The notes beneath the pieces were generated by a model. That model did not search any database, was not told the DNA's origin, and worked only from the letters and a program-made list of their open reading frames with translations. Positions 19,209-64,000 of a stretch of 64,000 nt of DNA are shown piece by piece (positions within the stretch are counted from its first letter, which is position 1; each line of letters opens with the position of its first letter). Made by a program: the position numbers and the translations under genes. The stretch is from positions 2,178-66,177 of the forward strand of contig JBKGYN010000003.1 of assembly GCA_046546105.1 (NCBI GenBank), in the 5' to 3' direction. The DNA is from Candidatus Woesearchaeota archaeon. GTDB lineage: Archaea; Nanobdellota; Nanobdellia; Woesearchaeales; SKGA01.

Positions 19209-20183
19209 TCACGAGACTTCCCGTTGCATCTTCTTCTCGTGCTCTTCACGCTCAAGAAGCCGTTGCGCCTCTAGTGCTGCCATGCAACCGCTTCCAGCGG
19301 CCGTCACTGCCTGACGATACACATGATCCTGGACATCCCCTGCTGCAAAGATTCCTGTAACGGATGTTCTTGTGTTCTCGGCCTTGAGGTAACCGACATC
19401 ATCCATCTCAAGAACGTCCTTGAAGAGTTCCGTATTCGGCTTGTGACCGATGGCTAGGAAGAGCCCGTCAGTTGTCATCTCTTCGACCTCTCCTGTCTTC
19501 GTATCCTTGACCTTCAGGCCAGTCACTTTCTCATCGCCGAGGACTTCATCCACGGTCTTGTTCGGTATGATCGTTATCTTCTCATTGTGTTTTGCCCTGT
19601 CGAGCATGATAGGTGATGCTTTGAATGTTTCTCGCCTGTTGAGGATAGTTACGCTCTTTGCGAAGTTCGTGAGGAAGTTCGCTTCTTCCATTGCTGAATC
19701 TCCGCCGCCGACAACGACAACATCCTTGTCCTTGAAGAAGAATCCGTCACAAGTAGCGCACGCAGACACTCCTTTACCCCGCATACGTTGTTCGCTCTCG
19801 ATACCGAGATATTTCGCTCTCGCACCTGTCGCGATAATCACAGTCTTCGCTTTGACCGTCTGCGCTCCTGTCGTGACCGTGAATGGTCGCTCTCCCATCT
19901 CGACATTCGTGACTTCTTCGAAGAAATCATCAGTTCCGAATCGTTTCGCTTGTTCTCGCATATCGTTCATGAGCTGTGTTCCTTGAATCCCTTTCGGAAA
20001 TCCGGGGAAGTTCTCGACTTCAGTAGTTGTTGTCAACTGCCCTCCAGGTTGCGTCCCTTCAAAGAGCGCTACTGAAAGGTTCGCTCGTGAAGCGTAGATC
20101 GCTGCTGTGAATCCTGCCGGTCCCGATCCTATAATGACAACGTCATAGAGTTTCTCGTTCGTTTGCTGTTCTGTCATTTTCAT
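19209..20183 (-). CDS. trxB: Thioredoxin-disulfide reductase
   Basis: FAD motif VIIGSGPAG, redox-active CATCDG, NAD(P)H motif VVVGGGDSAME. Confidence 0.9.
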   Translation of the reverse strand: MKMTEQQTNEKLYDVVIIGSGPAGFTAAIYASRANLSVALFEGTQPGGQLTTTTEVENFPGFPKGIQGTQLMNDMREQAKRFGTDDFFEEVTNVEMGERPFTVTTGAQTVKAKTVIIATGARAKYLGIESEQRMRGKGVSACATCDGFFFKDKDVVVVGGGDSAMEEANFLTNFAKSVTILNRRETFKASPIMLDRAKHNEKITIIPNKTVDEVLGDEKVTGLKVKDTKTGEVEEMTTDGLFLAIGHKPNTELFKDVLEMDDVGYLKAENTRTSVTGIFAAGDVQDHVYRQAVTAAGSGCMAALEAQRLLEREEHEKKMQREVS

Positions 20184-22045: not shown

Positions 22046-24619
22046 ATGGGGTCGTTTGAAGAGATTGATCAGTCAGATCTGACACCTGCGATGCGACAGT
22101 ACGTTGATATCAAGCGCCAGAACATGGATTCGATAGTCTTGTTTCGCATGGGCGATTTCTACGAGACATTCTATGATGACGCCATTGTAGCGGCTGACGT
22201 TCTCAACATCACGCTCACGTCGAGAAAGCAAGGCAAGGGCAAAGCTCCACTTGCAGGCATCCCGTTCCATGCTGCCGAGACATATGTCAAGCGTCTCATA
22301 GAAGCCGGTAAAAAGGTCGTTATCGTCGAGCAGCTTGAAGATCCGAAGAAAGCCAAGAAGGTCGTCAAGCGCGGTGTCACGCGCATCATCACCCCCGGAA
22401 CTGTTCTCGAGGATAACATCCTCTCCCCTACCACGAATAATTATCTCGCCAGCATCATTCTTGAGGGTAAGCGCTTTGGGATTGCCGTGTGCGATGTGTC
22501 CACTTCGGAAGTCTTCATGACACAGAGTGATGATAAGAACTTGCTTTTCGGAGAGTTAGAGAAATTCCGTCCTGCTGAGCTTGTCGTCAAGGGTTCCTTC
22601 GCCTCGCAAGAAGTGATTGATACCTGTCAGCATCTCGATATCACAATCTCCCGCGTTGATGACGAATTGTTTGATGTGGAGACCGCACTTCACATAGCTG
22701 GTAAGCAATTCGACAAGAAAAAGCTCAACGCGATTTCAAAGCATAACGAGCTGGCCATTTCCGCTCTCGGCCCGTTGGTCTCGTATGTCAAGCGCAACCT
22801 CCTCAAGGACGAGACTTATCTCTCATTTCCAGAGCTCTATTCATTAAGCCAATCGATGGTGCTCGATCAGACGACGCAGCGTAACCTCGAGCTCGTGTCA
22901 AACCAGATCGATGGAAGTCGTAAAGGCACCTTATTCTCCACGCTCAATCACACGATGACTGGCATGGGCGCTCGTTACCTGCAAAAGCTCATCCTCTCCC
23001 CCTCACTCGATCTCGATACGATCACGAAGCGCCAGGATGCAGTCGAATCCTTATTCCAGAATCCCATCCTCCTTGGCGATTTGCGCGAATCGCTTCGTGG
23101 TTGTAGCGACCTCCAGCGTCTTGTCGCCAGAGCGACCTACGGCTCCATCAATCCAAAGGAAGTCATCAGCCTGGCTCAGACCATCGAGACATTCAGCATC
23201 ATCAAGAAATTGCTCACGCAGACTGAATCCTCATTGTTCTCGGAAAGTCTTGATGTTCCTGACAACGAAAAGCTCGCATCCTCCATCCGCTCGACGATAA
23301 AGGATGAGCCTGCGACCAGTGTCCGCGAGGGTAATATCATCAAGGAAAGCGTGAGTGACGAACTTGACGAGCTGCGCACCCTCGCTTCCGACTCGAAAAC
23401 ATGGCTTCGTGATTTTGAGGAGCAGGAGCGTGAAAAGACCGGCATCAAGTCCTTGAAGGTCAAGTATAACAAGGTCTTCGGTTATTTCATCGAAGTCACG
23501 AAGGCAAACCTTCATCTCGTCCCCGATCATTACATCCGCAAGCAGACGCAAGTCAATAGCGAACGATACATCACTGACGAGCTCAAGGATAAGGAATCTC
23601 AACTTCTCGGCGCGCGAGAGCGTGCGAACACACTGGAGTTCGAACTCTTCCAGGAAACCATCAGGACGATCGTGTCGTATCAGGAAACGCTCAAGCGATC
23701 AGGGTCAGTACTCTCTCTCATCGACGCGATGCAGAGTCTCGCCCATGTGGCAAACAAGAATTCGTATTGCCGTCCGGAACTATCCGCTTCAGGCGATACT
23801 GTAATCCAGAAGGGTCGTCATCCTGTTGTTGAGCAACACGCTTCCTTTGTCGCCAATAACACCTTGTTCAAGGAGAAGGACACACTCCATGTCATCACAG
23901 GTCCTAATATGGCCGGTAAGAGCACGTATTTGCGACAGGTAGCGCTCATAACTCTCATGGCCCAGACTGGCAGTTTCGTTCCTGCAACGGATGCTCGTAT
24001 CGCGATTGTCGATCGCATATTCACGAGAGTCGGAGCTCACGATAATCTTTCCCAAGGTGAATCCACGTTCATGGTGGAGATGACCGAGACAGCCAACATC
24101 CTCAAGAACGCCACATCGAAATCGCTCATCATCCTTGATGAGATCGGTCGCGGGACATCGACATATGATGGTTTTTCCATCGCCTGGGCTGTCGCCCGTC
24201 ACATCGTTACGCGCATCGGTGCTAAAGCTCTCTTCGCCACTCATTATCACCAGCTCAACACGCTTGCTGGCGAGTTCGAGAGCGTGAAGAATTATCATAG
24301 CACTGTCGAGGAAAGCGAACACGGTCTCATATTCCTTCGTAAAATCCTTCCAGGCAGCACGGACAAGAGTTTTGGAGTTCACGTTGCCAAGATTGCAGGT
24401 GTTCCTGACGAGGTCATCAGTGATGCCCAGTCCATGATGGAAACATTGGAAGCTGAAGATAGGATCCTCGCACAATCGCAATCACACAAGAACAGCGACG
24501 GCTCCACACAAAAACAAAATATTGGGCCGCACGAACAACAATCCCGATCCGAAGAAGTCACTGAAGAGAAGCTCGGCAGCACAGGCCAGCTCTCTCTTGA
24601 GTCATTCGAGAAAAATTGA
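22046..24619 (+). CDS. mutS: DNA mismatch repair protein MutS (bacterial MutS1 type)
   Basis: N-terminal mismatch-binding region (TPAMRQY...GDFYE...F), Walker A GPNMAGKST, DE box ILDEIGRGTSTYDG, HTH at the C-terminus. Confidence 0.9.
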   Translation: MGSFEEIDQSDLTPAMRQYVDIKRQNMDSIVLFRMGDFYETFYDDAIVAADVLNITLTSRKQGKGKAPLAGIPFHAAETYVKRLIEAGKKVVIVEQLEDPKKAKKVVKRGVTRIITPGTVLEDNILSPTTNNYLASIILEGKRFGIAVCDVSTSEVFMTQSDDKNLLFGELEKFRPAELVVKGSFASQEVIDTCQHLDITISRVDDELFDVETALHIAGKQFDKKKLNAISKHNELAISALGPLVSYVKRNLLKDETYLSFPELYSLSQSMVLDQTTQRNLELVSNQIDGSRKGTLFSTLNHTMTGMGARYLQKLILSPSLDLDTITKRQDAVESLFQNPILLGDLRESLRGCSDLQRLVARATYGSINPKEVISLAQTIETFSIIKKLLTQTESSLFSESLDVPDNEKLASSIRSTIKDEPATSVREGNIIKESVSDELDELRTLASDSKTWLRDFEEQEREKTGIKSLKVKYNKVFGYFIEVTKANLHLVPDHYIRKQTQVNSERYITDELKDKESQLLGARERANTLEFELFQETIRTIVSYQETLKRSGSVLSLIDAMQSLAHVANKNSYCRPELSASGDTVIQKGRHPVVEQHASFVANNTLFKEKDTLHVITGPNMAGKSTYLRQVALITLMAQTGSFVPATDARIAIVDRIFTRVGAHDNLSQGESTFMVEMTETANILKNATSKSLIILDEIGRGTSTYDGFSIAWAVARHIVTRIGAKALFATHYHQLNTLAGEFESVKNYHSTVEESEHGLIFLRKILPGSTDKSFGVHVAKIAGVPDEVISDAQSMMETLEAEDRILAQSQSHKNSDGSTQKQNIGPHEQQSRSEEVTEEKLGSTGQLSLESFEKN

Positions 24620-24639
24620 ACTGGAAAAAACCCTTTACG

Positions 24640-26601
24640 ATGACAGACACTAACGATATCCGATTGCTTCCTGACGAGCTTATCAATAAGATCGCTGCTG
24701 GCGAGGTCATCGAACGTCCCGCCAATGTCGTCAAAGAAATCGTTGAGAACGCTCTTGACGCAGGCGCTAGGAAAGTCAACGTCTCGCTTGAAGATGGTGG
24801 TAAGAGTTTCATCCGCATAGAAGACGACGGGAGCGGCATCAGCGACATCACAACCGCTATAGAGCGTCATGCTACAAGTAAAATCCACACTGAAGAAGAC
24901 CTCGATCGCATCAGCACTCTTGGTTTCAGGGGAGAAGCGCTTGCCAGCATCTGCGCCATCTCGAAAGTCGAAATCCAGTCGAAAACAGAAATGATGAGCG
25001 AAGGGATCAAAGCAATCATTGAAAACGGTTCCGTGCTCAAGACCTCTAAAGTCCCGATGGATACTGGCACCATCATCACGATCAGGAATCTGTTCTACAA
25101 CACGCCCGCTCGTCAGAAATTTCTCAAATCGACTGCTGTCGAGAGGCGTCATTGTCAGGACATCCTGACCAAACTCTCCTTGTGTCAGCCTAAGGTCGAC
25201 ATTCGCCTGTCACATGATGGTAATGAGCTTCTTCACGCCACCCCCCATGATGATCTCAAGCAACGCGTAGCCAGTATTTATGATGTCGAAACCGCAAAGT
25301 CAATGCTTCCAATCAGTTTCGAGGATGATTTGTTCCGTATCACCGGTCTCACAGGTATTCCTTATAGCACAAGAAAGGACAAGAGTCGCCAGACCATCCT
25401 TATCAACCATCGTCCTGTTTCAGCTCCTGCTGTACGTCAGGGAGCGTATGACGCCTACCAGTCGCTTCGTTTCCTCGATCAGCATCCTGTATTCATCATT
25501 TCTATCGAATTAGATCCTACATTGGTCGATGTGAACGTTCATCCGACCAAGCAGGTTGTTCGTCTTTCTCACGAGGAACAGCTCGAGCGTGCTGTCTTTG
25601 AAGCTTGTACAAAAGCTCTGGAGAGCAACAACCTTACTCCTGAAGTGAATGCTTCAGAAAAAGTCTCTTCCAAACCTCAACAAACGAGTTTTCCCCCTCC
25701 AGAATTTCTCCCGTCTGAAATCCATCCTGCTCCTGATGATAAGCAGACACTTCTTGATATCCAACCAGAACCGGAACACCCATCACGATCTCATGAACCG
25801 ATTATGACCGGAAAGGAAAGCATCGTTGCCGATGACAGAGAGCAATATATCCAACAAGACCATATATCTGGCGAGAAACAGCCAGTCACGAACGAGACCC
25901 GTCCTGGAACCACAGGTTCACAGGATAATATAAGTGTCGAGCACGATAAGACAGCTCAACCCGCATCCGAGGAGAGGACAACCCCTAATGTTTCTGAAAC
26001 AGGAAAAAGTGCTTTTCATCATGATTTCGGCATCACCAGGATTTTCGGCCAATTATCACGCCTGTATATTCTTGCTGCATCAAGCAAGGGTCTTGTGATT
26101 ATTGACCAACATGCTGCTGAAGAGAGAATCCTCTTTGAGGAATTTCTTGACGGATTCAAGAAGGATTCAGTACCCTCGCAAGCACTGTTTAAACCTATCA
26201 TTTCGGAGGTTTCACCGTTGCAGATGGAAGAATATCAGGCTAATGCCGAACTCCTTTCAAAAGCAGGTTTTCGTATCGATGAATTCGGCGAGACCGAAAT
26301 CAAGATTTCTGCGATACCGGAGCTTTTCGGTAATATCGAGAAATCCTTTTTTACCGAGATTCTTGACGAGTTCAGTCTCATCCGTAAAGGTAAAGTCACT
26401 TCCTCTTCTCTACACACACTTGCTACAAAGGCTTGTAAGGCTGCCGTCAAAGCAGGTGATGAGCTCACTCCGCCCCAGATGAAACGCTTGATTAAACGCA
26501 TGGAATCTTGTAAACGTCCTTTTACATGCCCGCACGGTCGTCCGACTATCATTTCCATAACTCCGTACGAGCTTGAGAAGATGTTCCGTCGCAAAGCTTG
26601 A
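24640..26601 (+). CDS. mutL: DNA mismatch repair protein MutL
   Basis: GHKL ATPase motifs (IAAGEVIERPANVVKEIVENALDA, DDGSGI, GFRGEAL); C-terminal dimerisation domain with an endonuclease-like region; the ORF track starts at a TTG overlapping the mutS stop, the ATG is at 24640. Confidence 0.85.
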   Translation: MTDTNDIRLLPDELINKIAAGEVIERPANVVKEIVENALDAGARKVNVSLEDGGKSFIRIEDDGSGISDITTAIERHATSKIHTEEDLDRISTLGFRGEALASICAISKVEIQSKTEMMSEGIKAIIENGSVLKTSKVPMDTGTIITIRNLFYNTPARQKFLKSTAVERRHCQDILTKLSLCQPKVDIRLSHDGNELLHATPHDDLKQRVASIYDVETAKSMLPISFEDDLFRITGLTGIPYSTRKDKSRQTILINHRPVSAPAVRQGAYDAYQSLRFLDQHPVFIISIELDPTLVDVNVHPTKQVVRLSHEEQLERAVFEACTKALESNNLTPEVNASEKVSSKPQQTSFPPPEFLPSEIHPAPDDKQTLLDIQPEPEHPSRSHEPIMTGKESIVADDREQYIQQDHISGEKQPVTNETRPGTTGSQDNISVEHDKTAQPASEERTTPNVSETGKSAFHHDFGITRIFGQLSRLYILAASSKGLVIIDQHAAEERILFEEFLDGFKKDSVPSQALFKPIISEVSPLQMEEYQANAELLSKAGFRIDEFGETEIKISAIPELFGNIEKSFFTEILDEFSLIRKGKVTSSSLHTLATKACKAAVKAGDELTPPQMKRLIKRMESCKRPFTCPHGRPTIISITPYELEKMFRRKA

Positions 26602-26686: not shown

Positions 26687-27616
26687 TTATTTTTCCCATG
26701 AGCTGATGACAAGATCGTAGATTTTACCCTCGTATTTAACTGGCAAGACACGGTGTGCCAGATGCTTGATGGAATCGCTTGTATTCACTTTGAGATTGCT
26801 CGAGATGTCGATTTGTTTCCTTTCTTCTGTGATCACCGGTTCTCCTGCACAGCAGGTTGCATAGACTGTATGCGTGGAGTTCTGTTCGAGTTTGATCTTA
26901 TCACCGATTGGTTTGTAATCACATAGTGTTGCAATCTCGCCAGCATCGTATGATTTTTGCGTTCCCTCATAGCTTGAGAATGAACAGTTGTTAACGCCCG
27001 CACAATCTGCTTTACAGATCTCCCTGAAAGCTCCAGTGCAATCTTCGTGGCATGAACCTTGAGACAGGTATATGGTGGTCTCGTTATGCCCACCTCGAGG
27101 GATATATGTCTCTGCAATTTGTGAGTCGAAATCGCTGTAGATTGCTTTGAATCTGATACGGCCGCTTCGCACCACTTTATTTTCCAAGATTCCGTCTGAC
27201 CCGGTATTTCCCAATGATTCTTCACCATAAGGATAGATGGCGACAACTTCGGAATCTACCGTTCCACCATCTTCAAGTTTCACTTTGACCGTGACTGTGT
27301 TCGTATTGGATTCGTCTTTTCCGCAGTCCGGATCAGGACAGTTCTTGCAGCTTGTACGAACACCATCAGAATAGAAGTCTTCTGGACAGACCCCATCATC
27401 CGCTCCACAAGGGTAGCATTTTCCGCAGATATCGACAGCACCGTATCCTTGGACACTGTTTGGCGTCGCTCCGCAAACAAGCGTGGAGAACGTGGTTTGT
27501 TCATTGCAAGGTTTTGTCGGATCATAATCAGGGTTCGCCTCGATAGCTAGTCCGAAGCTCGCCATTCCAACGATAAGCAGTGCCGACACAATAAAGAATA
27601 ATGAATTGCCCTTCAT
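26687..27616 (-). CDS. Secreted cysteine-rich protein
   Basis: N-terminal signal peptide (MKGNSLFFIVSALLIVGMASFGLA) and about 20 Cys in C.C, CxxC and CxC clusters. Confidence 0.5.
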   Translation of the reverse strand: MKGNSLFFIVSALLIVGMASFGLAIEANPDYDPTKPCNEQTTFSTLVCGATPNSVQGYGAVDICGKCYPCGADDGVCPEDFYSDGVRTSCKNCPDPDCGKDESNTNTVTVKVKLEDGGTVDSEVVAIYPYGEESLGNTGSDGILENKVVRSGRIRFKAIYSDFDSQIAETYIPRGGHNETTIYLSQGSCHEDCTGAFREICKADCAGVNNCSFSSYEGTQKSYDAGEIATLCDYKPIGDKIKLEQNSTHTVYATCCAGEPVITEERKQIDISSNLKVNTSDSIKHLAHRVLPVKYEGKIYDLVISSWEK

Positions 27617-54504: not shown

Positions 54505-55131
54505 TTATAATACATCTAAATGTCCAAGTATATCATCATAGGAGTACAGAACAGGAATCCTGAAGCGTTCAATCTTGTTTCCGTCCATATCAACAGGAAT
54601 GACAAGTTCCATATCATCAGTATAATCATTCCAATCAATCAGGACAATATCATTCGAACCTTTTTGAATGGCTGAATCCGTTGAATCGTGAAATACGATA
54701 TTTTTTGAATTTGGAAGATATTCTCTAGCCAGGTCTTCACCCACAGCAGTATGAACCTTGCTTCTCTCTACATCTGACATACGCATAAGTTTTTTTTCGG
54801 TTCCGACCAGCGTCAAACCACTTTCAAGGCGCTTTTCAAAACCATTGTTCACTTCACTTTGATGTGCAAGTCGTCCTACAAGCACCACATCCACAGAGCC
54901 CTTATTCAATTCATCAAGAGCTTGGGCAGTAGATTCGTGATGAACCAATGAAACATGCTCATTCTTTGAAGCAATTTCTTCAGCCAAATCGTTCATCGTC
55001 GGACAATGACCGAGTGTGACAGGATCTTTTGCTGTAGAATCTTCAGTGACATCACCTGTGACACTGCAACCAGTCATGGACAGCACTACAGCAATCGCTA
55101 GTATCCCCAACATCAAAGTCTTGCTCTTCAT
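54505..55131 (-). CDS. Lipoprotein with periplasmic-binding-like domain
   Basis: Lipobox LSMTGCS after a signal peptide (start taken at MKSKTLMLG); first gene downstream of lplA in the operon. Confidence 0.45.
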   Translation of the reverse strand: MKSKTLMLGILAIAVVLSMTGCSVTGDVTEDSTAKDPVTLGHCPTMNDLAEEIASKNEHVSLVHHESTAQALDELNKGSVDVVLVGRLAHQSEVNNGFEKRLESGLTLVGTEKKLMRMSDVERSKVHTAVGEDLAREYLPNSKNIVFHDSTDSAIQKGSNDIVLIDWNDYTDDMELVIPVDMDGNKIERFRIPVLYSYDDILGHLDVL

Positions 55132-55176
55132 TTTACATACCTTTAAAAAATAATACAATAGTCAATTCTTAGTATT

Positions 55177-56097
55177 TCAACGATTGTTTTTTCCTGAATA
55201 AACAGTCTCTTGTTCTTCTTCAACAAGATCGACAAAACAATGACCTAAAAATCGCTGTCCCGAACCATGAGATTTCACATTTAGTTCTTTTTCATATTTA
55301 TGTATAGTATCTTCATCAAGGACTGAAAATTTAGTTTCATACAATGTTCCAAAGACTTCTTCCAGTGATTGTTTGAAAGTTCTTTTGAATTCTGTTACTG
55401 TCATCCCTATATCCTCTAGTCCTATAATCTTCTCGAGTTCTCGTTTTTCACTTCTTATAAATTCTAGCGAAGAGTTACTAGGGTCAGTTTTTTTCCCTTG
55501 TAAATCATAAAATTCACCCTCTACTTCAAGGTATTTTGAATCATCGGAAACCCACAATTCTCTTAACCTCAGGACTTTTTCGATAGTATCCATATCGAAT
55601 TTTTTTATGTTTATGACACCATCAAATTGAGTTATTGTATTATAGGATTTCATTGCATGTCCTGCAATAGGAACTAACCCATCATCAAGTTCATACCTTA
55701 AATAATAATTTCCGACTATTGAGAATTTCTCTCCCAGATTTTTCGCTAAAGGGAATGTGATTGATTTATATGCGTCGTGAATATTGAATTTATCACCGAA
55801 TTTCTCAGAATTGTAGAATACACTGTAACACAATGTCAGATTTGGTCCTGTTACTATAGCTGATCCCCCTGTCGGTCTTGAAGTTATTTCATAACCTTCC
55901 TGTTTACAGAAATCAACATTAACATCATCGATACTTTCTCGATTCCCTAATATGATTCCTTTATCGTGTAAGTAAGTTCTGGCAATCACATCATATTTTC
56001 CTTGGTGTATCAAATCAACACAATACCTGTTTATGGCGAGATTTTCTGAAGGTGATTTTACAACATCATCATTCCAAAATATGTTTCTCTCGTTCAT
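55177..56097 (-). CDS. lplA: Lipoate-protein ligase A-like (BPL/LplA/LipB family)
   Basis: ITSRPTGGSAIVTGPNLTLCYSVFY parallels the LplA motif RRSSGGGAVFHDLGN...; the conserved Lys region (HAMKSY) is present. Confidence 0.6.
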   Translation of the reverse strand: MNERNIFWNDDVVKSPSENLAINRYCVDLIHQGKYDVIARTYLHDKGIILGNRESIDDVNVDFCKQEGYEITSRPTGGSAIVTGPNLTLCYSVFYNSEKFGDKFNIHDAYKSITFPLAKNLGEKFSIVGNYYLRYELDDGLVPIAGHAMKSYNTITQFDGVINIKKFDMDTIEKVLRLRELWVSDDSKYLEVEGEFYDLQGKKTDPSNSSLEFIRSEKRELEKIIGLEDIGMTVTEFKRTFKQSLEEVFGTLYETKFSVLDEDTIHKYEKELNVKSHGSGQRFLGHCFVDLVEEEQETVYSGKNNR

Positions 56098-56100
56098 AGT

Positions 56101-57417
56101 CTATCGCCTTACGAACTGTAATTTCTTCAGACACAAATCTGCAACGATGGTCAAAGGATCGAAAATTGGTGCTGAGGCAGGGTTATAACAGGTCTCGAGA
56201 TTGGCCAATTCTTGTACAGTCACACCTTTTTGAATCGCTAAAGCAATCATATTCAAGCGGCCGACGACTTCGGCATCACCGATTATTTGCCCTCCAATGA
56301 TCTTTCCTGAATGGTCACAGAGTAATTGTAACGTAATACGTTCTTCTGATGGATAATATTCAGACCTTGCAGAGGCAGTATATTTTGCAGAGATTGTTTT
56401 GATATCAAGCTCTGTTGTTCGTCGTTTAGTCATCCCGACAGCTCCTATGTAGAACTCTCCGATTTTTGATATCGTATTATTCATCACAGGAGGGAATTTC
56501 TCACTGCCTCCGAGAATATTACTCGCAATGACCTTCGCCTGCCTGACAGCTGTTGTTCCCAACTGGCTGAATATCCGTTTTCCGGAATTAGCTTCATACG
56601 ATTCTACACAATCCCCACAGGCGAATATGTTCTTATCGGATGTTCTCATGTGATCATCGACGAGAATTCCTTTATTGACATCAAGGCCGGTTTCTTTCCC
56701 TATACTCGTGTCAGGTCTGACTCCTGTACATATGAAAAGATCCTCATATGAGATTTCTTGCGTATCAGTAATGACTGAATCAGAGGTTACTTCTGAAATG
56801 CGCTCGCCAGAATATAGTTGTATACCATTTGACTTCAAGTATTCTTCAAGGTCTTTTGCTATAGCTTCATCCAACAAAGCCGGCAGGATATTCTCTTTCG
56901 CTTCGACAAGAGAGACATTCTCACCTTTGCTTGCAAGGGAGAAAGCCAATTCCACACCCACCATACCAGCACCGACAACCACTGATTTTCTGCCGGATTT
57001 CATCCTCTCATGAATTTTTTTGGCATCTTCGATCGTATTCAAACAAGTGTAGTTTGCATTCTCCAAACCTTGTATTGGAGGAACGAAAGAATCGCTTCCT
57101 GTTGCAAGAACAAGATAATCGTATGGAACATCCTTATCATGGGCAAGAAGAAGCGTTTTTGCATCTCTATCGATAGCCTTGACTTCAGAGTTTTGCAAGA
57201 GCTTGATGTTATTCTCCTCATAATCCTTCTTTTTGAAAATGAAAATATCATCAAAAGAGGGTATCTCACCTGAAAGCACATACGGTAGTGCACATGAAGA
57301 ATACTCTGTATTGGACGTTTTTTCAATAAGGAGTATCTCAACTTCCTTATCTGACCTCCTTAATTCAAATGCACACGTAGTGCCTGCACTACCCCCTCCG
57401 ATAATCACGACTCTCAT
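56101..57417 (-). CDS. FAD-dependent pyridine-nucleotide-disulfide oxidoreductase, NADH oxidase/CoA-disulfide reductase type (single redox Cys)
   Basis: FAD fold VVIIGGGSAGTTCA, single active-site Cys in SSCALPY (Nox/Npx/Cdr hallmark), NADH fold VVVGAGMVGVELA. Confidence 0.75.
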   Translation of the reverse strand: MRVVIIGGGSAGTTCAFELRRSDKEVEILLIEKTSNTEYSSCALPYVLSGEIPSFDDIFIFKKKDYEENNIKLLQNSEVKAIDRDAKTLLLAHDKDVPYDYLVLATGSDSFVPPIQGLENANYTCLNTIEDAKKIHERMKSGRKSVVVGAGMVGVELAFSLASKGENVSLVEAKENILPALLDEAIAKDLEEYLKSNGIQLYSGERISEVTSDSVITDTQEISYEDLFICTGVRPDTSIGKETGLDVNKGILVDDHMRTSDKNIFACGDCVESYEANSGKRIFSQLGTTAVRQAKVIASNILGGSEKFPPVMNNTISKIGEFYIGAVGMTKRRTTELDIKTISAKYTASARSEYYPSEERITLQLLCDHSGKIIGGQIIGDAEVVGRLNMIALAIQKGVTVQELANLETCYNPASAPIFDPLTIVADLCLKKLQFVRR

Positions 57418-57427
57418 TGGAATAACC

Positions 57428-57871
57428 TCAGTCTAGCTTATCACCGGGATTAGGACAACTGTTCTCGATACAGTCTTGTATTTTGCTCTCCATCTCTTGA
57501 CCCATGGAATCACTAAAGCCGACCCAGTGCTCTTCACCTATGAAGGTCGTTGGAACGCCACTAGCCCGGATTCCGTAAGCTTGTGCAACTTCTTGGAATA
57601 GGTTCCTGTTCTCACGATCATTCCACGTCTCAAACATTTTCACTTCAAGATCGTCACCATATTTTTGGTCCAATTCTTCAAGGAAAGGCTTCTCGTCAGA
57701 ACAATGTGGACATCCTTCTCCCCAGAAGAAATACACGACTACCTTATCAGCATCATCACTTTTATTCTCAACGGCTTTTCCTGCAGGAGTTTCTGGATTA
57801 TCTGTTGAACACCCAGCAAGCATCATCACTGCAAATAATAGTATCATCACATAAATCATTGTAGTTCTCAT
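57428..57871 (-). CDS. Thioredoxin-fold lipoprotein (CPHC active site; TlpA/ResA-like)
   Basis: Signal peptide plus lipobox MLAGCS; VVVYFFWGEGCPHCSDEKPFLEEL is a Trx-fold CxxC motif. Confidence 0.65.
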   Translation of the reverse strand: MRTTMIYVMILLFAVMMLAGCSTDNPETPAGKAVENKSDDADKVVVYFFWGEGCPHCSDEKPFLEELDQKYGDDLEVKMFETWNDRENRNLFQEVAQAYGIRASGVPTTFIGEEHWVGFSDSMGQEMESKIQDCIENSCPNPGDKLD

Positions 57872-57890
57872 AATATTTCACCATAGATCA

Positions 57891-58277
57891 TTAATCATTA
57901 TACGTTTTATAGAACTCTTTTGCCTCATCAGCACCCATTAAGCCTTCAACTTCCGAAGGATCGTCGAGCTTGATCTTTGCAATCCAGTTCTTGTACGGTT
58001 CCTTGTTGATTTCAGAGGGATCATCGAACAGCGAATCGTTCACTTCAATAATCTCCCCGGAGACCGGGCTTGAGAGATGCCCTGACCATTTTAGAGCTTC
58101 TACTGAAACATACGTATCACCTTGCTTTATTTTCTTCCCTTTTTCAGGGAGCATTATGAAGACGAATTCCTTGACTTTTTTCGCGGCAGGCCCTATAACA
58201 CCAAGAGTGGCCGTATCGCCTTCAACCTTGACCCACGTGTAATCCTTGTTGTATTTCAGCTCAGTTGGGAAGTCCAT
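57891..58277 (-). CDS. gcvH: Glycine-cleavage-H-like lipoyl carrier protein
   Basis: 128 aa; hybrid-barrel hallmarks YTWVKVEGDTATLGV and VEALKWSGHLSSPVSGEI, with the lipoyl-Lys in VEALK. Confidence 0.7.
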   Translation of the reverse strand: MDFPTELKYNKDYTWVKVEGDTATLGVIGPAAKKVKEFVFIMLPEKGKKIKQGDTYVSVEALKWSGHLSSPVSGEIIEVNDSLFDDPSEINKEPYKNWIAKIKLDDPSEVEGLMGADEAKEFYKTYND

Positions 58278-59733
58278 TGGTATCCTCCTCTTTGTTTTTT
58301 GGATCTTCAGTATTTTTGTTCTTATTATTATGGTGGTTCACTTGAGATTCTATGTCGCTATCTTTCTTAACCTTTCGAGCTCCAGTACGCTTGTTATTCC
58401 TCACATCATTCTTCCCAAGTTTTTCGGAACCTATATAGATTCCGAATCTCGGAAGCACCTTCCTATGAATCCATATGACAAGTATTGAAGCTGCAATAGC
58501 TCCTCCAAATACCAAAAATGTCGTTCCAATACTATTCATAAGGTCGGGATCGACAAGCATTACGAAAGCAAGTGCCAACATTATCATTCCACCGACCATT
58601 TTCAAGATTCGACCATGTTTTTCTTCAAATCGTGTAGCTTTCATAGTAGTAATAGCAATCACTATTATGATGATCTCAATCAAAAGATAGATTATCATAT
58701 ATAGTAACAGATGCGTAAAGAATGCGAATCCTTGAATCTGTTGTTGAGCCATCATGTTAGTCCATATCAAAGGGAATCCTGCAGTACAAGGTAATTCGAC
58801 CAGAACCACACCTAGAGCTAGCAATGACGTCCCTATGATTGTAGAAGTAAATGATTTATCACTTCTCATCACATTCCGCATATTCTTGAAAATCTTGGGT
58901 TTGTATTTATCAGGAATCGTGAAAGAAACTCCTTTCTTATACCAGAAATAATCCTTGATATTCACAACCGCAAAGATAAACGCTATCGTTGCTACTATTA
59001 TCTGTATCACATTCAGATACCCAACATACTGGAAGACATTCAACAATCCTGCCATGAAAAGAGCATAAGCAGTACCGGTTACCAATAAAAACGTTCCTCC
59101 AACAACAAGTACTTTCTTTCTGGAATTAGAATAGATGACAATACCCAAGAGGAATGTTATCAACCACAATGAACATGGATTGAAACCATCGACAAAAGCT
59201 ATCAACCCTGTCATTACCGCCGAGGGCATAGCACCTACATTGACCTGTCCGATAAGTGGAATATTAACTATATCTTTTGATTCTGACTTGTAATCACCTT
59301 TGGGGAGAGAAGGTGTGACCCCATCTACTTTCTCTGCAGGGCAAGGACAACCGTCTTCTTGACAATCCTCTAGTAAAGAGTCGATGCTGTTTTTTATAGA
59401 ATCCTGCCCTATCAAATAATTATTACCGATAAATACGATAGGATAGCCGCCACTACGGACACCATAACTTTCTTTGAATGATTCATAGATATCTTTTTCT
59501 GACTCATTGGCGATATCATGATATGTCATATGGAGATTGTCATATTCAAGCCCGTCAAGGTACACCTCTATCTCAGAACAATCAGGACACTCCTCATCGA
59601 TAAATACGTGTAAGCACGTTCCTTCAGAAGTTGTTGCATTCGTTCCATCCTGTGCCATGACAGGAGCTACAATGGTAAGTAGCATCACCACCATCAACAA
59701 TACTTTCGCTGTTTGATCACCCTTGAATTTCAT
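58261..59733 (-). CDS. DsbD/CcdA-family transmembrane thiol-disulfide electron transporter with N-terminal CxxC Trx-like domain
   Basis: Signal peptide; N-domain CPDC and CPCP; TM core with the two DsbD-family Cys motifs FNPCSLWL and LPCTAGFPL; basic K/N-rich C-terminal tail. Confidence 0.7.
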   Translation of the reverse strand: MKFKGDQTAKVLLMVVMLLTIVAPVMAQDGTNATTSEGTCLHVFIDEECPDCSEIEVYLDGLEYDNLHMTYHDIANESEKDIYESFKESYGVRSGGYPIVFIGNNYLIGQDSIKNSIDSLLEDCQEDGCPCPAEKVDGVTPSLPKGDYKSESKDIVNIPLIGQVNVGAMPSAVMTGLIAFVDGFNPCSLWLITFLLGIVIYSNSRKKVLVVGGTFLLVTGTAYALFMAGLLNVFQYVGYLNVIQIIVATIAFIFAVVNIKDYFWYKKGVSFTIPDKYKPKIFKNMRNVMRSDKSFTSTIIGTSLLALGVVLVELPCTAGFPLIWTNMMAQQQIQGFAFFTHLLLYMIIYLLIEIIIIVIAITTMKATRFEEKHGRILKMVGGMIMLALAFVMLVDPDLMNSIGTTFLVFGGAIAASILVIWIHRKVLPRFGIYIGSEKLGKNDVRNNKRTGARKVKKDSDIESQVNHHNNKNKNTEDPKNKEEDTNGLPN

Positions 59734-59854
59734 TGATATAACCCCACTACCACACTAATGGTATTACCAGTGCAATTATGTTATACCCAATTTAGGAAGT
59801 GAAATCCTTTTTAAAGGTTTTTTTCAAAAAATGAAATGACCCTCTTCAATCATT

Positions 59855-60397
59855 TCATTGTATAAAAAGCTCTTTGAACGAATCGTTGAGAATCACTTTG
59901 TTCGTCATCCCATTCTTTTCTTTACGCACGACACCTTTGGATTCAAGATTCGCAAGCTTCCTGTGGAGTTTGACAGCATTAATTCCTGTCACATCTGCCA
60001 GATTACTCTGAGTGATTTCTCCTCCATCTCTGATTAGAGCCAAAACGATCACTTTATTATCATGTTCGAGAAAATCCAAGGTGTGTTCAATATTCCCGAG
60101 AATTTGTTGTTTCTCTTTAGAATAGGATTTTGATAAGAAATAGTAAGTCAAAATACCAACAAATACTCCTAACGATGTCAGTACGGCGATAATGATAGGC
60201 AGAGTTACCTTGCAACTGCAAGCCAGACCATAATTATCATTGATGAAATAAATCGCTAATGAAACGACAAATATGAATCCGATCAATATAGCGACAGACA
60301 GCAGTATGCTGCGCAGATTGGAACCGTCTTGAGATTCATCTGTTCTTTTCAGCGAGTCTATAGTATTATCAAAAGACATTCCGAATAAAAAAACCAT
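59855..60397 (-). CDS. Membrane-anchored winged-helix transcriptional regulator
   Basis: Two TM helices followed by an MarR/ArsR-like wHTH (LALIRDGGEITQSNLADVTGINAVKLHRKLANLESKGVV). Confidence 0.5.
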   Translation of the reverse strand: MVFLFGMSFDNTIDSLKRTDESQDGSNLRSILLSVAILIGFIFVVSLAIYFINDNYGLACSCKVTLPIIIAVLTSLGVFVGILTYYFLSKSYSKEKQQILGNIEHTLDFLEHDNKVIVLALIRDGGEITQSNLADVTGINAVKLHRKLANLESKGVVRKEKNGMTNKVILNDSFKELFIQ

Positions 60398-62026: not shown

Positions 62027-62422
62027 TCACTGTCTGAAATTCCAGTTATCCTTACGGCATTGCACTTCACGGTCCACTGATTCCATGAAGCGATATAGTG
62101 TCGCCTTGAGTTCTTCAAGTTGCTTCTCGAGAAGCGTGTAAACATCGTTCTCTATGAAATGCAGATCCTTTGCCAATAGCAAGAGCACTTCGACTTCCCG
62201 GCACGATCCGTAGCTGTATTGCAGATGGTTGAAGAACACCTTGTTCGATCTATTGGACGCCCCCTCCACGATGTTGAGGACGATGCTTGTCGCTGCCCGT
62301 TGCAGTTGCGAGTACATGTTGCGAAGTTCCGTTTCCGGAAAAGAAGGCAGTACTCCGTAGACTTCCAGAACGAACCTATAACTCAAATCATAAATTTTTA
62401 GTTTCTTGAAATTCCGCCCCAT
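62027..62422 (-). CDS. Four-helix-bundle protein (23S rRNA intervening-sequence protein family, TIGR02436; Avd-like)
   Basis: MGRNFKKLKIYDLSYRFVLEVYGV...YSQLQRAATSIVLNIVEGASNRSNKVFFNHLQYSYGSCREVEVLL matches the family pattern (l.vy..a..L...vy..t..fP..E.y.L.dQlrRAa.Si..NIAEG..r.s.kef..fl.ia.GS..E); start set at the internal Met (the ORF track extends 109 codons further into purine-rich low-complexity DNA). Confidence 0.7.
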   Translation of the reverse strand: MGRNFKKLKIYDLSYRFVLEVYGVLPSFPETELRNMYSQLQRAATSIVLNIVEGASNRSNKVFFNHLQYSYGSCREVEVLLLLAKDLHFIENDVYTLLEKQLEELKATLYRFMESVDREVQCRKDNWNFRQ

Positions 62423-62794
62423 GATAAAAGCAGATATACTGCGGCAGTTAAAAACAGTTTCTCGAAGAAATTCGGAAAGCTTCCGGATGAACGACCATAA
62501 GAAAGCAGCCAAGTGAAAAAAAAGAGTGAGAAGAATATCGATCGTGAGCTTGAATAGCAGCGATACACAAGCAGTTTGTTTGAATGATGAGAGGAAGGCA
62601 AAAAAGGAAAGAAGAGACGAGAGTAAAAAAGACAAGAGGAAAGTGAAACACAGTCTTCCGTCTATCCGGTTGATTCTACTTGTAAGAAAAGTGAACACAG
62701 AAAAAGTCTGAACGATGAGAAAAGAGAAGGGAAAAAATGATACCCGCACAAAGGAAAGAAGATTATGTAATCAGAACACCAAATGTTGAATACA

Positions 62795-64000
62795 AAGACG
62801 AACTATTAGTAACCGCGGGCTGAACGTCTCGTTGCCTCGACGCTTACACCCCAGTCCTATCAACCCCGTCTTCTACGGGGGTTCTGGGTCTCTTTTCGAG
62901 GGGAGTTTCGTGCTTAGATGCTTTCAGCACTTACCTCGTGAAGCGTAGCTGCTCGACATGCCCTGTCGGACAATCGATCACCAGAGGCTCCGAATCATCG
63001 TTCCTCTCGTACTAAATGATCCTTCCTCTCAGACCCGTTAACAATTCCAGTAGATATCAAACAAACTGCTTCACAGCGTTCTGAACCCAGCTCACGATTC
63101 CTTTTAATGGGTGAACACCCCCACCCTTGGCCGCTTCTACACAGCCAGGATAGGAAGAGCCGACATCGATGTAGCAAACCGCGCCGTCGATAGGGGCTCT
63201 CGGGCGCGACAACTCTGTTATCCCCGGAGTAACTTTTCAGTCACGCCTACCGCCCAGTCAAGGACAAGTAGGAGATCGCTAGACCAAACTTTCGTTACTG
63301 GACTCGATTGTGGTACGATTCCAGTTAGGCTGGCTTTTATTCTTGCACTCTACACCGGATTTCTGACCCGGTTGAGCCAACCTTTGGGCGCCATTGATAT
63401 CTTTTCAACGGCGTGCCACCCCAGCCAAACTGTCCACCAGCAGCTGTCCCGACATGTCGGTTAGCGGCGCGAAACTCAAAGAATGGTGTTACATTGGCGC
63501 CTCCACAAGATCTGGCGACCTTGCTTCGAAGGCTCCCATTTACGCTATACAATGAGTTTCCCGTCACAACAACTGGCTACAGTAAAGTTTCACGGGGTCT
63601 TCGCTTCCCACTGGAATTCTCTGGCCTTTGCACCAGAAAAGAGTGTTCGGAGGGTTCTAGTTAGGGACAGCGGTAATCTCGTTACGCCATTCATGCAGGC
63701 CGTCAATCAAACGGCAAGGCGTTTCGCTACCTTAAGAGAGTTATAGTTACCCCCGCCGTTTACCAGCTCTTAGCTCCCTTGAAAAGGAGTTTGAAGTGCA
63801 GGCACTGGGCAGACGTCACCGACTATACACACCATTACTGGCTTGCAGTCAGTTAAGTTTTTGTTAAACAGTCGGACTACCTTTGTCATCAAACCCTACG
63901 ATTGCATCCATACGAACACAAAAGTAGGGACCCCTTATACCGAAGGTACAGGGCCAATATTGCTGAATTCCCTTAACTTAGATTTTCCCTTCACACCTTA
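62795..64000 (-). rRNA. rrl: 23S ribosomal RNA, 3' ~1.2 kb (continues beyond window end)
   Basis: Reverse complement contains universally conserved 23S domain V/VI strings (AAAAGTTACTCCGGGGATAACAG; GTAACTATAACTCTCTTAAGGTAGCGAAA; GCTGAAAGCATCTAAGCACGAAA) and a 3' terminus ...CGGTTACTAATAG near 62795. Confidence 0.9.

Follow-up and report, generated by a model that had tools for sequence, protein, structure and literature searches.

A cluster of six minus-strand genes was analyzed in a 64,000-nucleotide stretch of DNA from Candidatus Woesearchaeota archaeon (GenBank assembly GCA_046546105.1, contig JBKGYN010000003.1, positions 2,178 to 66,177 of the forward strand), referred to below as the window. 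The cluster (window 54505-59733, minus strand) joins a GcvH-type lipoyl carrier to a membrane protein with conserved cysteines (MEM), a thioredoxin (Trx)-fold lipoprotein, a flavoprotein, a divergent LplA-like protein (LplAw), and a second lipoprotein (LP217). We read it as a self-contained redox module, in which a protein-bound lipoyl group would be the working cofactor and NAD(P)H reducing power would be carried to the cell surface, and we give this reading a probability of roughly 0.55. An initial annotation, made from the letters of the window alone, had proposed a lipoyl-based shuttle and had considered glycine cleavage an unlikely role for this GcvH. The second point is supported, as the linkage is kept across dozens of lineages of the Candidate Phyla Radiation (CPR) and of the archaeal Diapherotrites, Parvarchaeota, Aenigmarchaeota, Nanoarchaeota, and Nanohaloarchaeota (DPANN), with partners that do not include glycine cleavage T or P proteins or E1 or E2 proteins. 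We therefore take the genes to be one functional unit that works in something other than glycine cleavage.

The six genes lie head-to-tail in the order MEM, a putative membrane thiol-disulfide relay protein (58261..59733, 490 aa), GcvH-type lipoyl carrier (57891..58277, 128 aa), Trx-fold lipoprotein with a CPHC motif (57428..57871, 147 aa), flavoprotein of the group of coenzyme A disulfide reductase (CoADR), NADH oxidase (Nox), and NADH peroxidase (Npr) (56101..57417, 438 aa), LplAw of the LplA/LipB superfamily (55177..56097, 306 aa), and LP217 (54505..55158, 217 aa; 208 aa in public gene calls, where its start is at 55131), all on the minus strand. The junctions are -17, +19, +10, +3, and +18 nt, the gcvH start overlapping the MEM stop by 17 nt, and the open reading frame (ORF) coordinates and measured junctions agree with the gaps of -17 to +20 nt noted earlier. 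Family scans detected no GCV_T, GDC-P, E1, or E2 domain in any window ORF of at least 300 aa, in line with the earlier observation that the window is without glycine cleavage T/P and 2-oxoacid dehydrogenase E1/E2 genes.

The gene neighbourhoods of relatives were surveyed in two directions, and the linkage of gcvH to the MEM gene was kept in both. A search with the MEM sequence returned more than 2,600 relatives, the closest from Woesearchaeota/Nanoarchaeota and from Patescibacteria (CPR). One genome per species was retained, giving 80 loci with flanks of up to 10 kb each, and the six-frame ORFs were searched with the cluster proteins. Among the top 35 loci by MEM score, 33 had at least 450 nt downstream; 3 of the 33 were Chloroflexota, which left 30 usable species loci of the CPR/DPANN type. 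GcvH was encoded directly downstream of MEM in 26 of these 30, and in one more the gcvH gene was cut by a contig end. In the reverse direction, an alignment of the GcvH clade was searched against metagenome contigs (42 loci, 37 with at least 300 nt upstream), and the MEM gene was found immediately 5' of GcvH in 33/37. Adjacency of the two genes thus reaches ~90% of loci in either direction and across two domains of life, an arrangement far beyond chance. Among the Chloroflexota-type loci GcvH was next to the MEM gene in 0/45, and neither GcvH, flavoprotein, LipA, nor Lpl genes were found within 10 kb of it in any of the 45.

Gene maps were made around five MEM relatives. Four of them (one Woesearchaeota locus and three CPR loci) had the same order: MEM, GcvH, Trx/Redoxin lipoprotein, Pyr_redox_2, radical S-adenosylmethionine (SAM) protein, LplA catalytic subunit, and LplB. 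The fifth, from Woesearchaeota, had the MEM gene followed by an LP217 homolog and nothing else of the cluster. Genes for T and P were absent from the conserved neighbours in about 120 loci, and E1 and E2 genes were not among the conserved neighbours either. Between the window and CPR, the identity was 57-58% for MEM and 59-62% for GcvH, which equals the identity between different Woesearchaeota; the module as a whole has thus probably been exchanged between the two domains, and would be laterally mobile among ultra-small archaea and bacteria. Some metagenome-assembled genomes (MAGs; L015-L036) carry titles such as 'uncultured Gammaproteobacteria' or 'Methanosarcinales', while the module and its flanking genes resemble those of CPR/DPANN, and the names may be unreliable.

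The carrier proved to be a stand-alone GcvH, as had been annotated. It matches PF01597 (1.5e-34; 119 bits, cutoff 22) and NF002270 (125.3 bits, cutoff 117) and scores just under the cutoff of TIGR00527 (107, cutoff 115.85). The lipoyl-lysine is K63 in VEALKWSGH, and the motif E-A-[LVI]-K-W-[ST]-G is invariant in the aligned cluster GcvHs (30/30). No signal peptide was seen in the sequence, and the protein is predicted to be a cytoplasmic lipoyl carrier that stands alone.

MEM begins with a signal peptide, which is followed by an extracytoplasmic Trx-fold domain and by a domain of seven transmembrane (TM) helices with a CcdA fold. The cysteines of the outside domain are C49-P-D-C52, C40, C124, C129, and C131. 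In the membrane domain, Cys187 (NPC, TM1) and Cys316 (LPC, TM4; FSC in Chloroflexota) are invariant in 85/85 MEM homologs, including those of Chloroflexota, and both are at helix breaks in the predicted structure. In the aligned homologs (n = 15) the signal peptide is followed by one or two outside Trx-like modules, in each of which a CxxC motif and a pair of C-terminal cysteines are present, and by a highly conserved membrane domain. Loop charges, as read from the sequence and the model, agree with an N-out, C-in topology.

The active site of the Trx lipoprotein reads CPHC, its lipobox is LAGC, and its C-terminal cysteine pair is CIENSC; the matches to family models (Thioredoxin, Redoxin, Thioredoxin_2) are weak; its earlier description as a CPHC Trx-fold lipoprotein stands. 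Its identity is 55% (9e-54) with the first outside domain of a longer MEM homolog (P0003) and 48% (7e-35) with the N-terminal, sole outside domain of the MEM homolog of Longilinea arvoryzae. The strongest argument for joint action of the two proteins is that the Trx part is separate here and fused to MEM in relatives.

The flavoprotein matches Pyr_redox_2 (2e-65) and Pyr_redox_dim (5e-12), and its active-site Cys42, in the motif YSSCALPY, is present in 121/121 homologs, as expected of the CoADR/Nox/Npr group. It remains below the equivalog cutoffs of TIGR03385 (308 vs 579), NF007123 (283 vs 458), and NF046103 (215 vs 600). The best solved relative is NoxA-3 of A. fulgidus (6pfz, 7e-75), and further ones are an NADH oxidase (6ruz), a CoA-persulfide reductase (8a56), and CoADR-type proteins (3ntd/3nta). 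NADH may be the preferred electron donor, judging by a GxGxxG...E pattern (VVVGAGMVGVE...LVE). Just before the conserved active-site Tyr lies a second cysteine, C410 (ETCYNPA, aligned with LDLAYAPP of NoxA-3); it is present in 16/16 in-cluster copies and is replaced by Ala or Ser in methanogen relatives. In CoADR the equivalent Tyr reaches the active site of the partner subunit, and C410 might pair with Cys42 of that subunit. An obligatory role of C410 as second redox cysteine was dropped, since no more than 85/121 homologs have it and Ala, Val, or Gly takes its place in some rather close relatives. The former label of a single-Cys Nox/Cdr-type reductase is thus right as to the Pyr_redox domains and Cys42 but passes over a second, clade-enriched cysteine. 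A role solely as reductant of the radical-SAM lipoyl synthase (LipT-like) was rejected: the window, L015, and L045 keep the flavoprotein without LipA, so that supplying electrons to lipoyl synthase would not be its whole function. We propose that it is the reductase of lipoyl-GcvH.

LplAw matches PF21948 (LplA-B_cat; 8.7e-15, 55.6 bits, cutoff 27) and has the LplA/LipB fold, and hhalign relates it to the canonical LplA of other clusters (probability 98.4%, E 7e-15). The catalytic lysine of the KxSG motif is K133 in E. coli LplA. In the hhalign alignment the KKISG lysine of canonical LplA is matched by the Pro of P-I-A-G-H-A, and none of 31 LplAw family members has a conserved lysine at this position. 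The family instead has its own C-terminal motif, LGHCFVD, with an invariant G-H-(C)-F. It is small (69 matches among 1.84 billion representatives), and Lip_prot_lig_C was not matched by LplAw or the neighbouring genes, which leaves it without the C-terminal accessory domain/LplB. The same type was found in L015, L044, L045, and L098, always without LipA. The superfamily assignment in the initial annotation is upheld, but the label of lipoate ligase is doubtful with Pro in place of the catalytic Lys; LplAw could be a lipoyl/octanoyl transferase of a new kind, or else a partner without catalytic activity.

The radical-SAM gene of most relatives is LipA (TIGR00510, 345.7 bits, cutoff 310; the LipS2 model scores 26 bits), followed by a bipartite LplA/LplB of the Thermoplasma type, with LplB above the cutoff of NF053749. 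A LipB-like gene was found in one relative locus. Between LipA and LplA, some clusters have a secreted or lipoprotein-like ORF of ~156-180 aa that matches no family (L005 12739-13209; L035 13711-14250; L036 15573-16076). LipA and Lpl were catalogued by Tanabe et al. in 15.6% and 13.5% of Nanoarchaeota genomes, respectively, and E2-type matches in 18%; the linkage of MEM and GcvH is not described there. For Woesearchaeales GW2011-AR15 (CP010425.1), the matches listed in an excerpt of that catalogue are LipA, LplA, and LplB alone.

Variant clusters in relatives contain further proteins next to the carrier. AhpD-core genes (CMD, CxxC) directly follow the cluster GcvH in six distinct metagenome loci and in L044 (L044 3832-4119; L098 2431-2757; L117 5097-5426; L120 941-1288; L126 546-905; L131 8954-9292, shared by L131/L132; L134 2616-2909). 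A gene for an OsmC-type peroxidase is located between the Trx and flavoprotein genes in L027 (4581-5057), and the AhpD-like/OsmC slot is often taken by DUF169 (L007, L035, L096, L097, L099-L102, L109). In M. tuberculosis lipoyl-SucB is the reductant of AhpD, and peroxidases of the Ohr/OsmC type depend on lipoyl groups. Together with this dependence, the AhpD-like and OsmC insertions beside GcvH favour a reduced lipoyl-GcvH pool as the reductant hub. Separately, a trio of genes for an ArsR-type HTH_5 protein, a small Thioredoxin_3 protein, and an ArsP_1 permease was seen near the cluster in one Woesearchaeota locus (L005 14892-16863) and one CPR locus (L013 4017-5697).

The shuttle suggested in the initial annotation is consistent with the conserved linkage, the invariant lipoyl-lysine, the fusion of Trx and MEM, and the AhpD-like/OsmC neighbours, whereas its electron steps and their direction are what we infer. 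The flavoprotein would draw on NAD(P)H (probably NADH) and reduce the lipoyl disulfide of the dedicated cytoplasmic GcvH. The dihydrolipoyl arm would then reduce the buried Cys187-Cys316 pair of MEM, from which the electron pair would pass by thiol-disulfide exchange to the outside Trx-fold domain of MEM and the CPHC Trx lipoprotein. These outside Trx domains would hold extracytoplasmic cysteines in the reduced state, with LP217 as the first candidate client. In relatives, dihydrolipoyl-GcvH probably also feeds the cytoplasmic AhpD-like and OsmC-type peroxidases. The cofactor would be made or attached by LipA and LplA/LplB in most relatives, and by the atypical LplA-like protein in the window. 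Standard potentials run downhill along this route, from NADH (-0.32 V) to lipoyl (-0.29 V) and on to Trx-fold and protein disulfides. If an outside acceptor such as disulfides or polysulfide were abundant, the pathway could double as a fermentative electron sink for cells without respiratory chains.

A canonical thioredoxin-disulfide reductase, TrxB, is encoded in the window at 19209-20183 (-) (TIGR01292, 417 bits, cutoff 343), so that the organism has a normal Trx system besides the lipoyl module. That the module nevertheless has its own carrier and reductase hints that MEM prefers a lipoyl donor. To our knowledge, CPR bacteria and DPANN archaea generally lack lipoate-dependent dehydrogenases. 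We tentatively extend the proposal, at somewhat less than even odds, as follows: a lipoyl protein rather than thioredoxin would be the obligatory cytoplasmic donor for this CcdA-fold family; CPR/DPANN would keep lipoate, LipA, and GcvH solely for the export of NADH-derived reductant; the module would have moved between domains; and Chloroflexota would use housekeeping lipoyl proteins. On the last point, it may be speculated that the donor in Chloroflexota comes from housekeeping GcvH/E2, which Tanabe et al. found in 76% and 85% of Chloroflexota genomes, respectively. A signature of a donor switch was sought by comparing GcvH-linked with Chloroflexota MEM proteins and gave no signal, as the domains differ merely at four positions, one in a cytoplasmic loop (K280G) and three in TM helices.

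Several findings weigh against the proposed export route. As the membrane domain of Chloroflexota MEM differs at only these four positions and GcvH is not nearby, the donor may be generic. The placement of MEM among known transporters depends on structure: its CcdA-type helical core fold comes solely from structure comparison and is accompanied by the TM1 and TM4 cysteines beside Pro. In Pfam, DsbD (PF02683) and DsbD_2 (PF13386) were not matched by any of 15 MEM-family members at E up to 0.1. CcdA was likewise absent from a profile search of the PDB with MEM, NCBIfam gave no DsbD/CcdA placement, an hhalign comparison with two DsbD_2 proteins from the loci was not significant, and a test for an internal 3+3 repeat in the membrane domain lent no support. 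MEM is thus CcdA-like by fold and cysteine pattern and not a member of the DsbD/CcdA sequence families, so that the earlier term DsbD/CcdA transporter holds in the first sense but not in the second. The flavoprotein is without the CxxxxC of true lipoamide dehydrogenase (Lpd/E3), the Lpd model TIGR01350 reaches 124 bits against a cutoff of 409 over residues 86-406 alone, and the family takes in O2-reducing NADH oxidases and persulfide reductases. Without the catalytic lysine in LplAw, lipoylation of the window GcvH is not assured. To these are added the CPHC motif of the Trx lipoprotein, which is the active-site motif of the oxidase DsbA and could make the outside Trx oxidising, and a sulfur-relay variant of the cluster; both are considered with the alternatives below.

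Electrons could instead flow in reverse, as quinone-independent disulfide formation: exported cysteines would be oxidised by the CPHC Trx, the electrons would pass via MEM to lipoyl-GcvH, and the flavoprotein would return GcvH to the oxidised state, with NAD(P)+ or O2 as acceptor. Such a pathway would stand in for DsbB/VKOR in organisms that have no quinones. Besides the CPHC motif, this is in agreement with DSBA Pfam matches in 11/15 MEM homologs, with the names of the closest solved flavoprotein relatives (NADH oxidases; 6pfz, 6ruz), and with the oxidation of dihydrolipoyl as the physiological direction of E3. In S. gordonii the oxidase SdbA is reported to have CcdA2 as a redox partner (PMC7034828). 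CPR/DPANN are reported to be without electron transport chains (PMC7507113), which would leave DsbB/VKOR with no acceptor if quinones, not mentioned in that paper, are presumed absent. However, transfer from a DsbA-like centre (~-0.12 V) to lipoyl (-0.29 V) is strongly uphill, and a redox potential is not set by the motif alone. The AhpD-like and OsmC genes beside GcvH require a reduced lipoyl pool, and O2 would be unavailable as a sink to many of the hosts, which come from sediment and spring metagenomes presumed anoxic by their sample names. We regard reverse flow as unlikely.

A role in the handling of sulfane sulfur appears quite unlikely. In such a role, GcvH would be LbpA-like, the flavoprotein would be a persulfide/polysulfide reductase, and MEM and Trx would process surface polysulfide or persulfidated cysteines. 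The flavoprotein is replaced by a YeeE/Sulf_transp membrane protein with DsrE, DsrF, and DsrH, directly before LipA, in L026 (8327-10346), L029 (5161-7600), L031 (12643-14940), and L036 (12777-14782), and L029 and L031 also have a TusA gene (Pfam assignment covered the L029 copies). The solved relatives 8a56 and 3ntd/3nta of the flavoprotein fit this role as well, several source MAGs have isolate names from soda lakes or saline sites, and LbpA with its own lipoylation genes is an earlier case in which a GcvH-like protein takes part in sulfur metabolism (PMC6067878, PMC10332631). Yet the sulfur-relay variant is rare (4 of about 75 clusters), and the window cluster is without a sulfur-transfer gene. 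Genes of the heterodisulfide reductase-like system for sulfur oxidation (sHdr) occur in no locus, the carrier scores as GcvH and not as LbpA or GcvH-related families, and the flavoprotein, at 438 aa, is without the rhodanese domain of persulfide reductases.

Housekeeping, in which GcvH and the ligase would serve glycine cleavage or relay lipoyl to enzymes elsewhere and the CcdA-like neighbour would be meaningless, is very improbable: GcvH does pass the general model NF002270, is a lipoyl-relay hub in Firmicutes (PMC10332631), and could find acceptors in the E2-type proteins of some Nanoarchaeota, but the overlapping MEM and GcvH genes stay adjacent at the frequency given above in both domains, the T, P, E1, and E2 genes are missing from the window and the conserved neighbours alike, and the excerpted GW2011-AR15 matches are those for lipoate assembly and attachment alone.

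For the NADH-to-surface route, the outside partners and regulation were also considered. LP217 has no Pfam or NCBIfam match. Its AlphaFold model is confident (predicted local distance difference test score, pLDDT, 84) and has a type-2 periplasmic-binding-protein fold, with Foldseek matches to phosphate-binding proteins and OxyR/LysR effector domains (~1e-8). Cys43 is invariant in 23/23 sequences, in the motif LG[YH]CPTM, where the first strand meets the first helix. LP217 is homologous to a ~218-aa CPR protein encoded just upstream of the MEM gene (hhalign probability 98.3%, E 2e-14); the CPR homologs have CPTC in 8/12 and an added C-terminal CxxxC. LP217 stays beside the MEM gene even in loci without GcvH, which makes it a likely client or partner outside the cell; in the relay it may act as a client or as a receptor for a ligand. 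Annotated before simply as a lipoprotein, which it is, it is also a conserved component with an invariant cysteine and a binding-protein fold.

A membrane-anchored winged helix-turn-helix (wHTH) regulator of the DUF7343/MarR-like type (59855..60397, minus strand; Pfam DUF7343 1.8e-07) had been overlooked in the initial annotation and probably belongs to the unit. It has two TM helices, and a CxC in the loop between them is invariant in 12/12 aligned homologs. The gene is directly upstream of the MEM gene in archaeal versions of the cluster, and homologs are found upstream of MEM in L005, L009, L015, L017, L024, L027, L034, L036, L038, L040, and L088. By its sequence features the protein is a candidate for a thiol redox sensor that sits in the membrane and regulates the cluster. 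The intergenic region before the first cluster gene (59734..59854, minus strand), as read by eye, has a T-run after the regulator gene and a TATA-like TTTAAAAA ~75 nt before the ATG. A scan for sigma-70 promoters and terminators gave counts near the shuffled expectation, the sigma-70 consensus being uninformative for an archaeon.

The proposed route was compared with known systems. CcdA/DsbD pathways (Streptococcus CcdA1/2 to the Etrx or SdbB lipoproteins and on to MsrAB; E. coli DsbD) likewise have TM1 and TM4 cysteines that pass an electron pair to outside Trx folds, and MEM resembles CcdA in fold and DsbD-type proteins in its fused N-terminal outside redox domain. These pathways are thought to draw on cytoplasmic thioredoxin and its reductase, whereas here GcvH, a CoADR-like flavoprotein, and lipoylation genes are linked instead. 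MEM also differs in matching neither the DsbD nor the DsbD_2 model and in having 7 TM helices, and genes for MsrAB and cytochrome c maturation are not nearby. The mycobacterial relay of Lpd, lipoyl-SucB, AhpD, and AhpC, together with lipoyl-dependent Ohr/OsmC, likewise runs from NADH via a flavoprotein and protein-bound lipoyl to a CxxC protein. Its carrier is a dehydrogenase E2 and its Lpd has CxxxxC, in contrast to the dedicated GcvH and the Cys42-type CoADR/Nox relative found here. The cluster is without AhpC, its main conserved partner is a membrane relay protein with outside Trx domains, and no AhpD or OsmC genes were found in the window itself.

The sHdr-LbpA clusters (sLpl(AB), LipS1/S2, LipT; PMC6067878, PMC10332631) have in common with the present one a GcvH-like carrier outside glycine cleavage, its own lipoate assembly genes, and a flavoprotein, and TusA/DsrE is shared with a minority of the clusters here. 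They differ in that sHdr genes are in neither the window nor the loci, LipA takes the place of LipS1/S2, and the carrier is GcvH and not LbpA; the sHdr system has no link to a CcdA-fold membrane protein. In pathogens among the Firmicutes, a different group of organisms, operons of GcvH-L, LplA2, SirTM, and macrodomain proteins (PMC4518038) also combine a stand-alone extra GcvH with its own LplA-type enzyme, for which an oxidative-stress role was proposed. No sirtuin or macrodomain domains were found in the cluster or flanking genes, the Firmicute operons are without membrane and Trx parts, and LplAw is without the catalytic lysine. The initial annotation had known of no such gene combination, and a full-text literature search likewise found no published description of the cluster; the CPR/DPANN physiology literature examined does not mention these components. 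The cluster would most likely carry reducing power from NADH to the surface via lipoyl-GcvH and a membrane cysteine relay, a route that is not known to have been described.

CPR bacteria and DPANN archaea account for a large part of microbial diversity. Their genomes are tiny, they are without respiratory chains, and little is understood of their redox biology. If the NADH-to-surface route is correct, lipoate would have a function beyond 2-oxoacid dehydrogenases, glycine cleavage, and sHdr sulfur oxidation, and a DsbD/CcdA-type transmembrane relay would have its first donor other than thioredoxin. It would also explain why some CPR/DPANN keep LipA and LplA, for which the published survey gave no clear cofactor acceptor in Nanoarchaeota. 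The module is compact (six to eight genes), and three of its families are uncharacterised: MEM, the lysine-less LplA-like enzyme, and the Cys-bearing lipoprotein with a binding-protein fold.

Further features were recorded elsewhere in the window, whose proteins also occur on contigs of a Candidatus Woesearchaeota MAG (GCA_046540075.1). A secreted protein at 26687-27616 (-), named in the initial annotation as a candidate substrate, has 17 Cys in 309 residues and belongs to no Pfam family. An ORF at 62027-62749 (-), whose counterpart on identical contigs has PF05635 (23S rRNA-intervening-sequence protein), adjoins the 3' part of an archaeal large-subunit (23S) rRNA gene at the window end (62786-64000). 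Full-length bacterial-type MutS, with all five domains, and MutL are encoded in tandem at 22046-26601 (+) in this DPANN archaeon.

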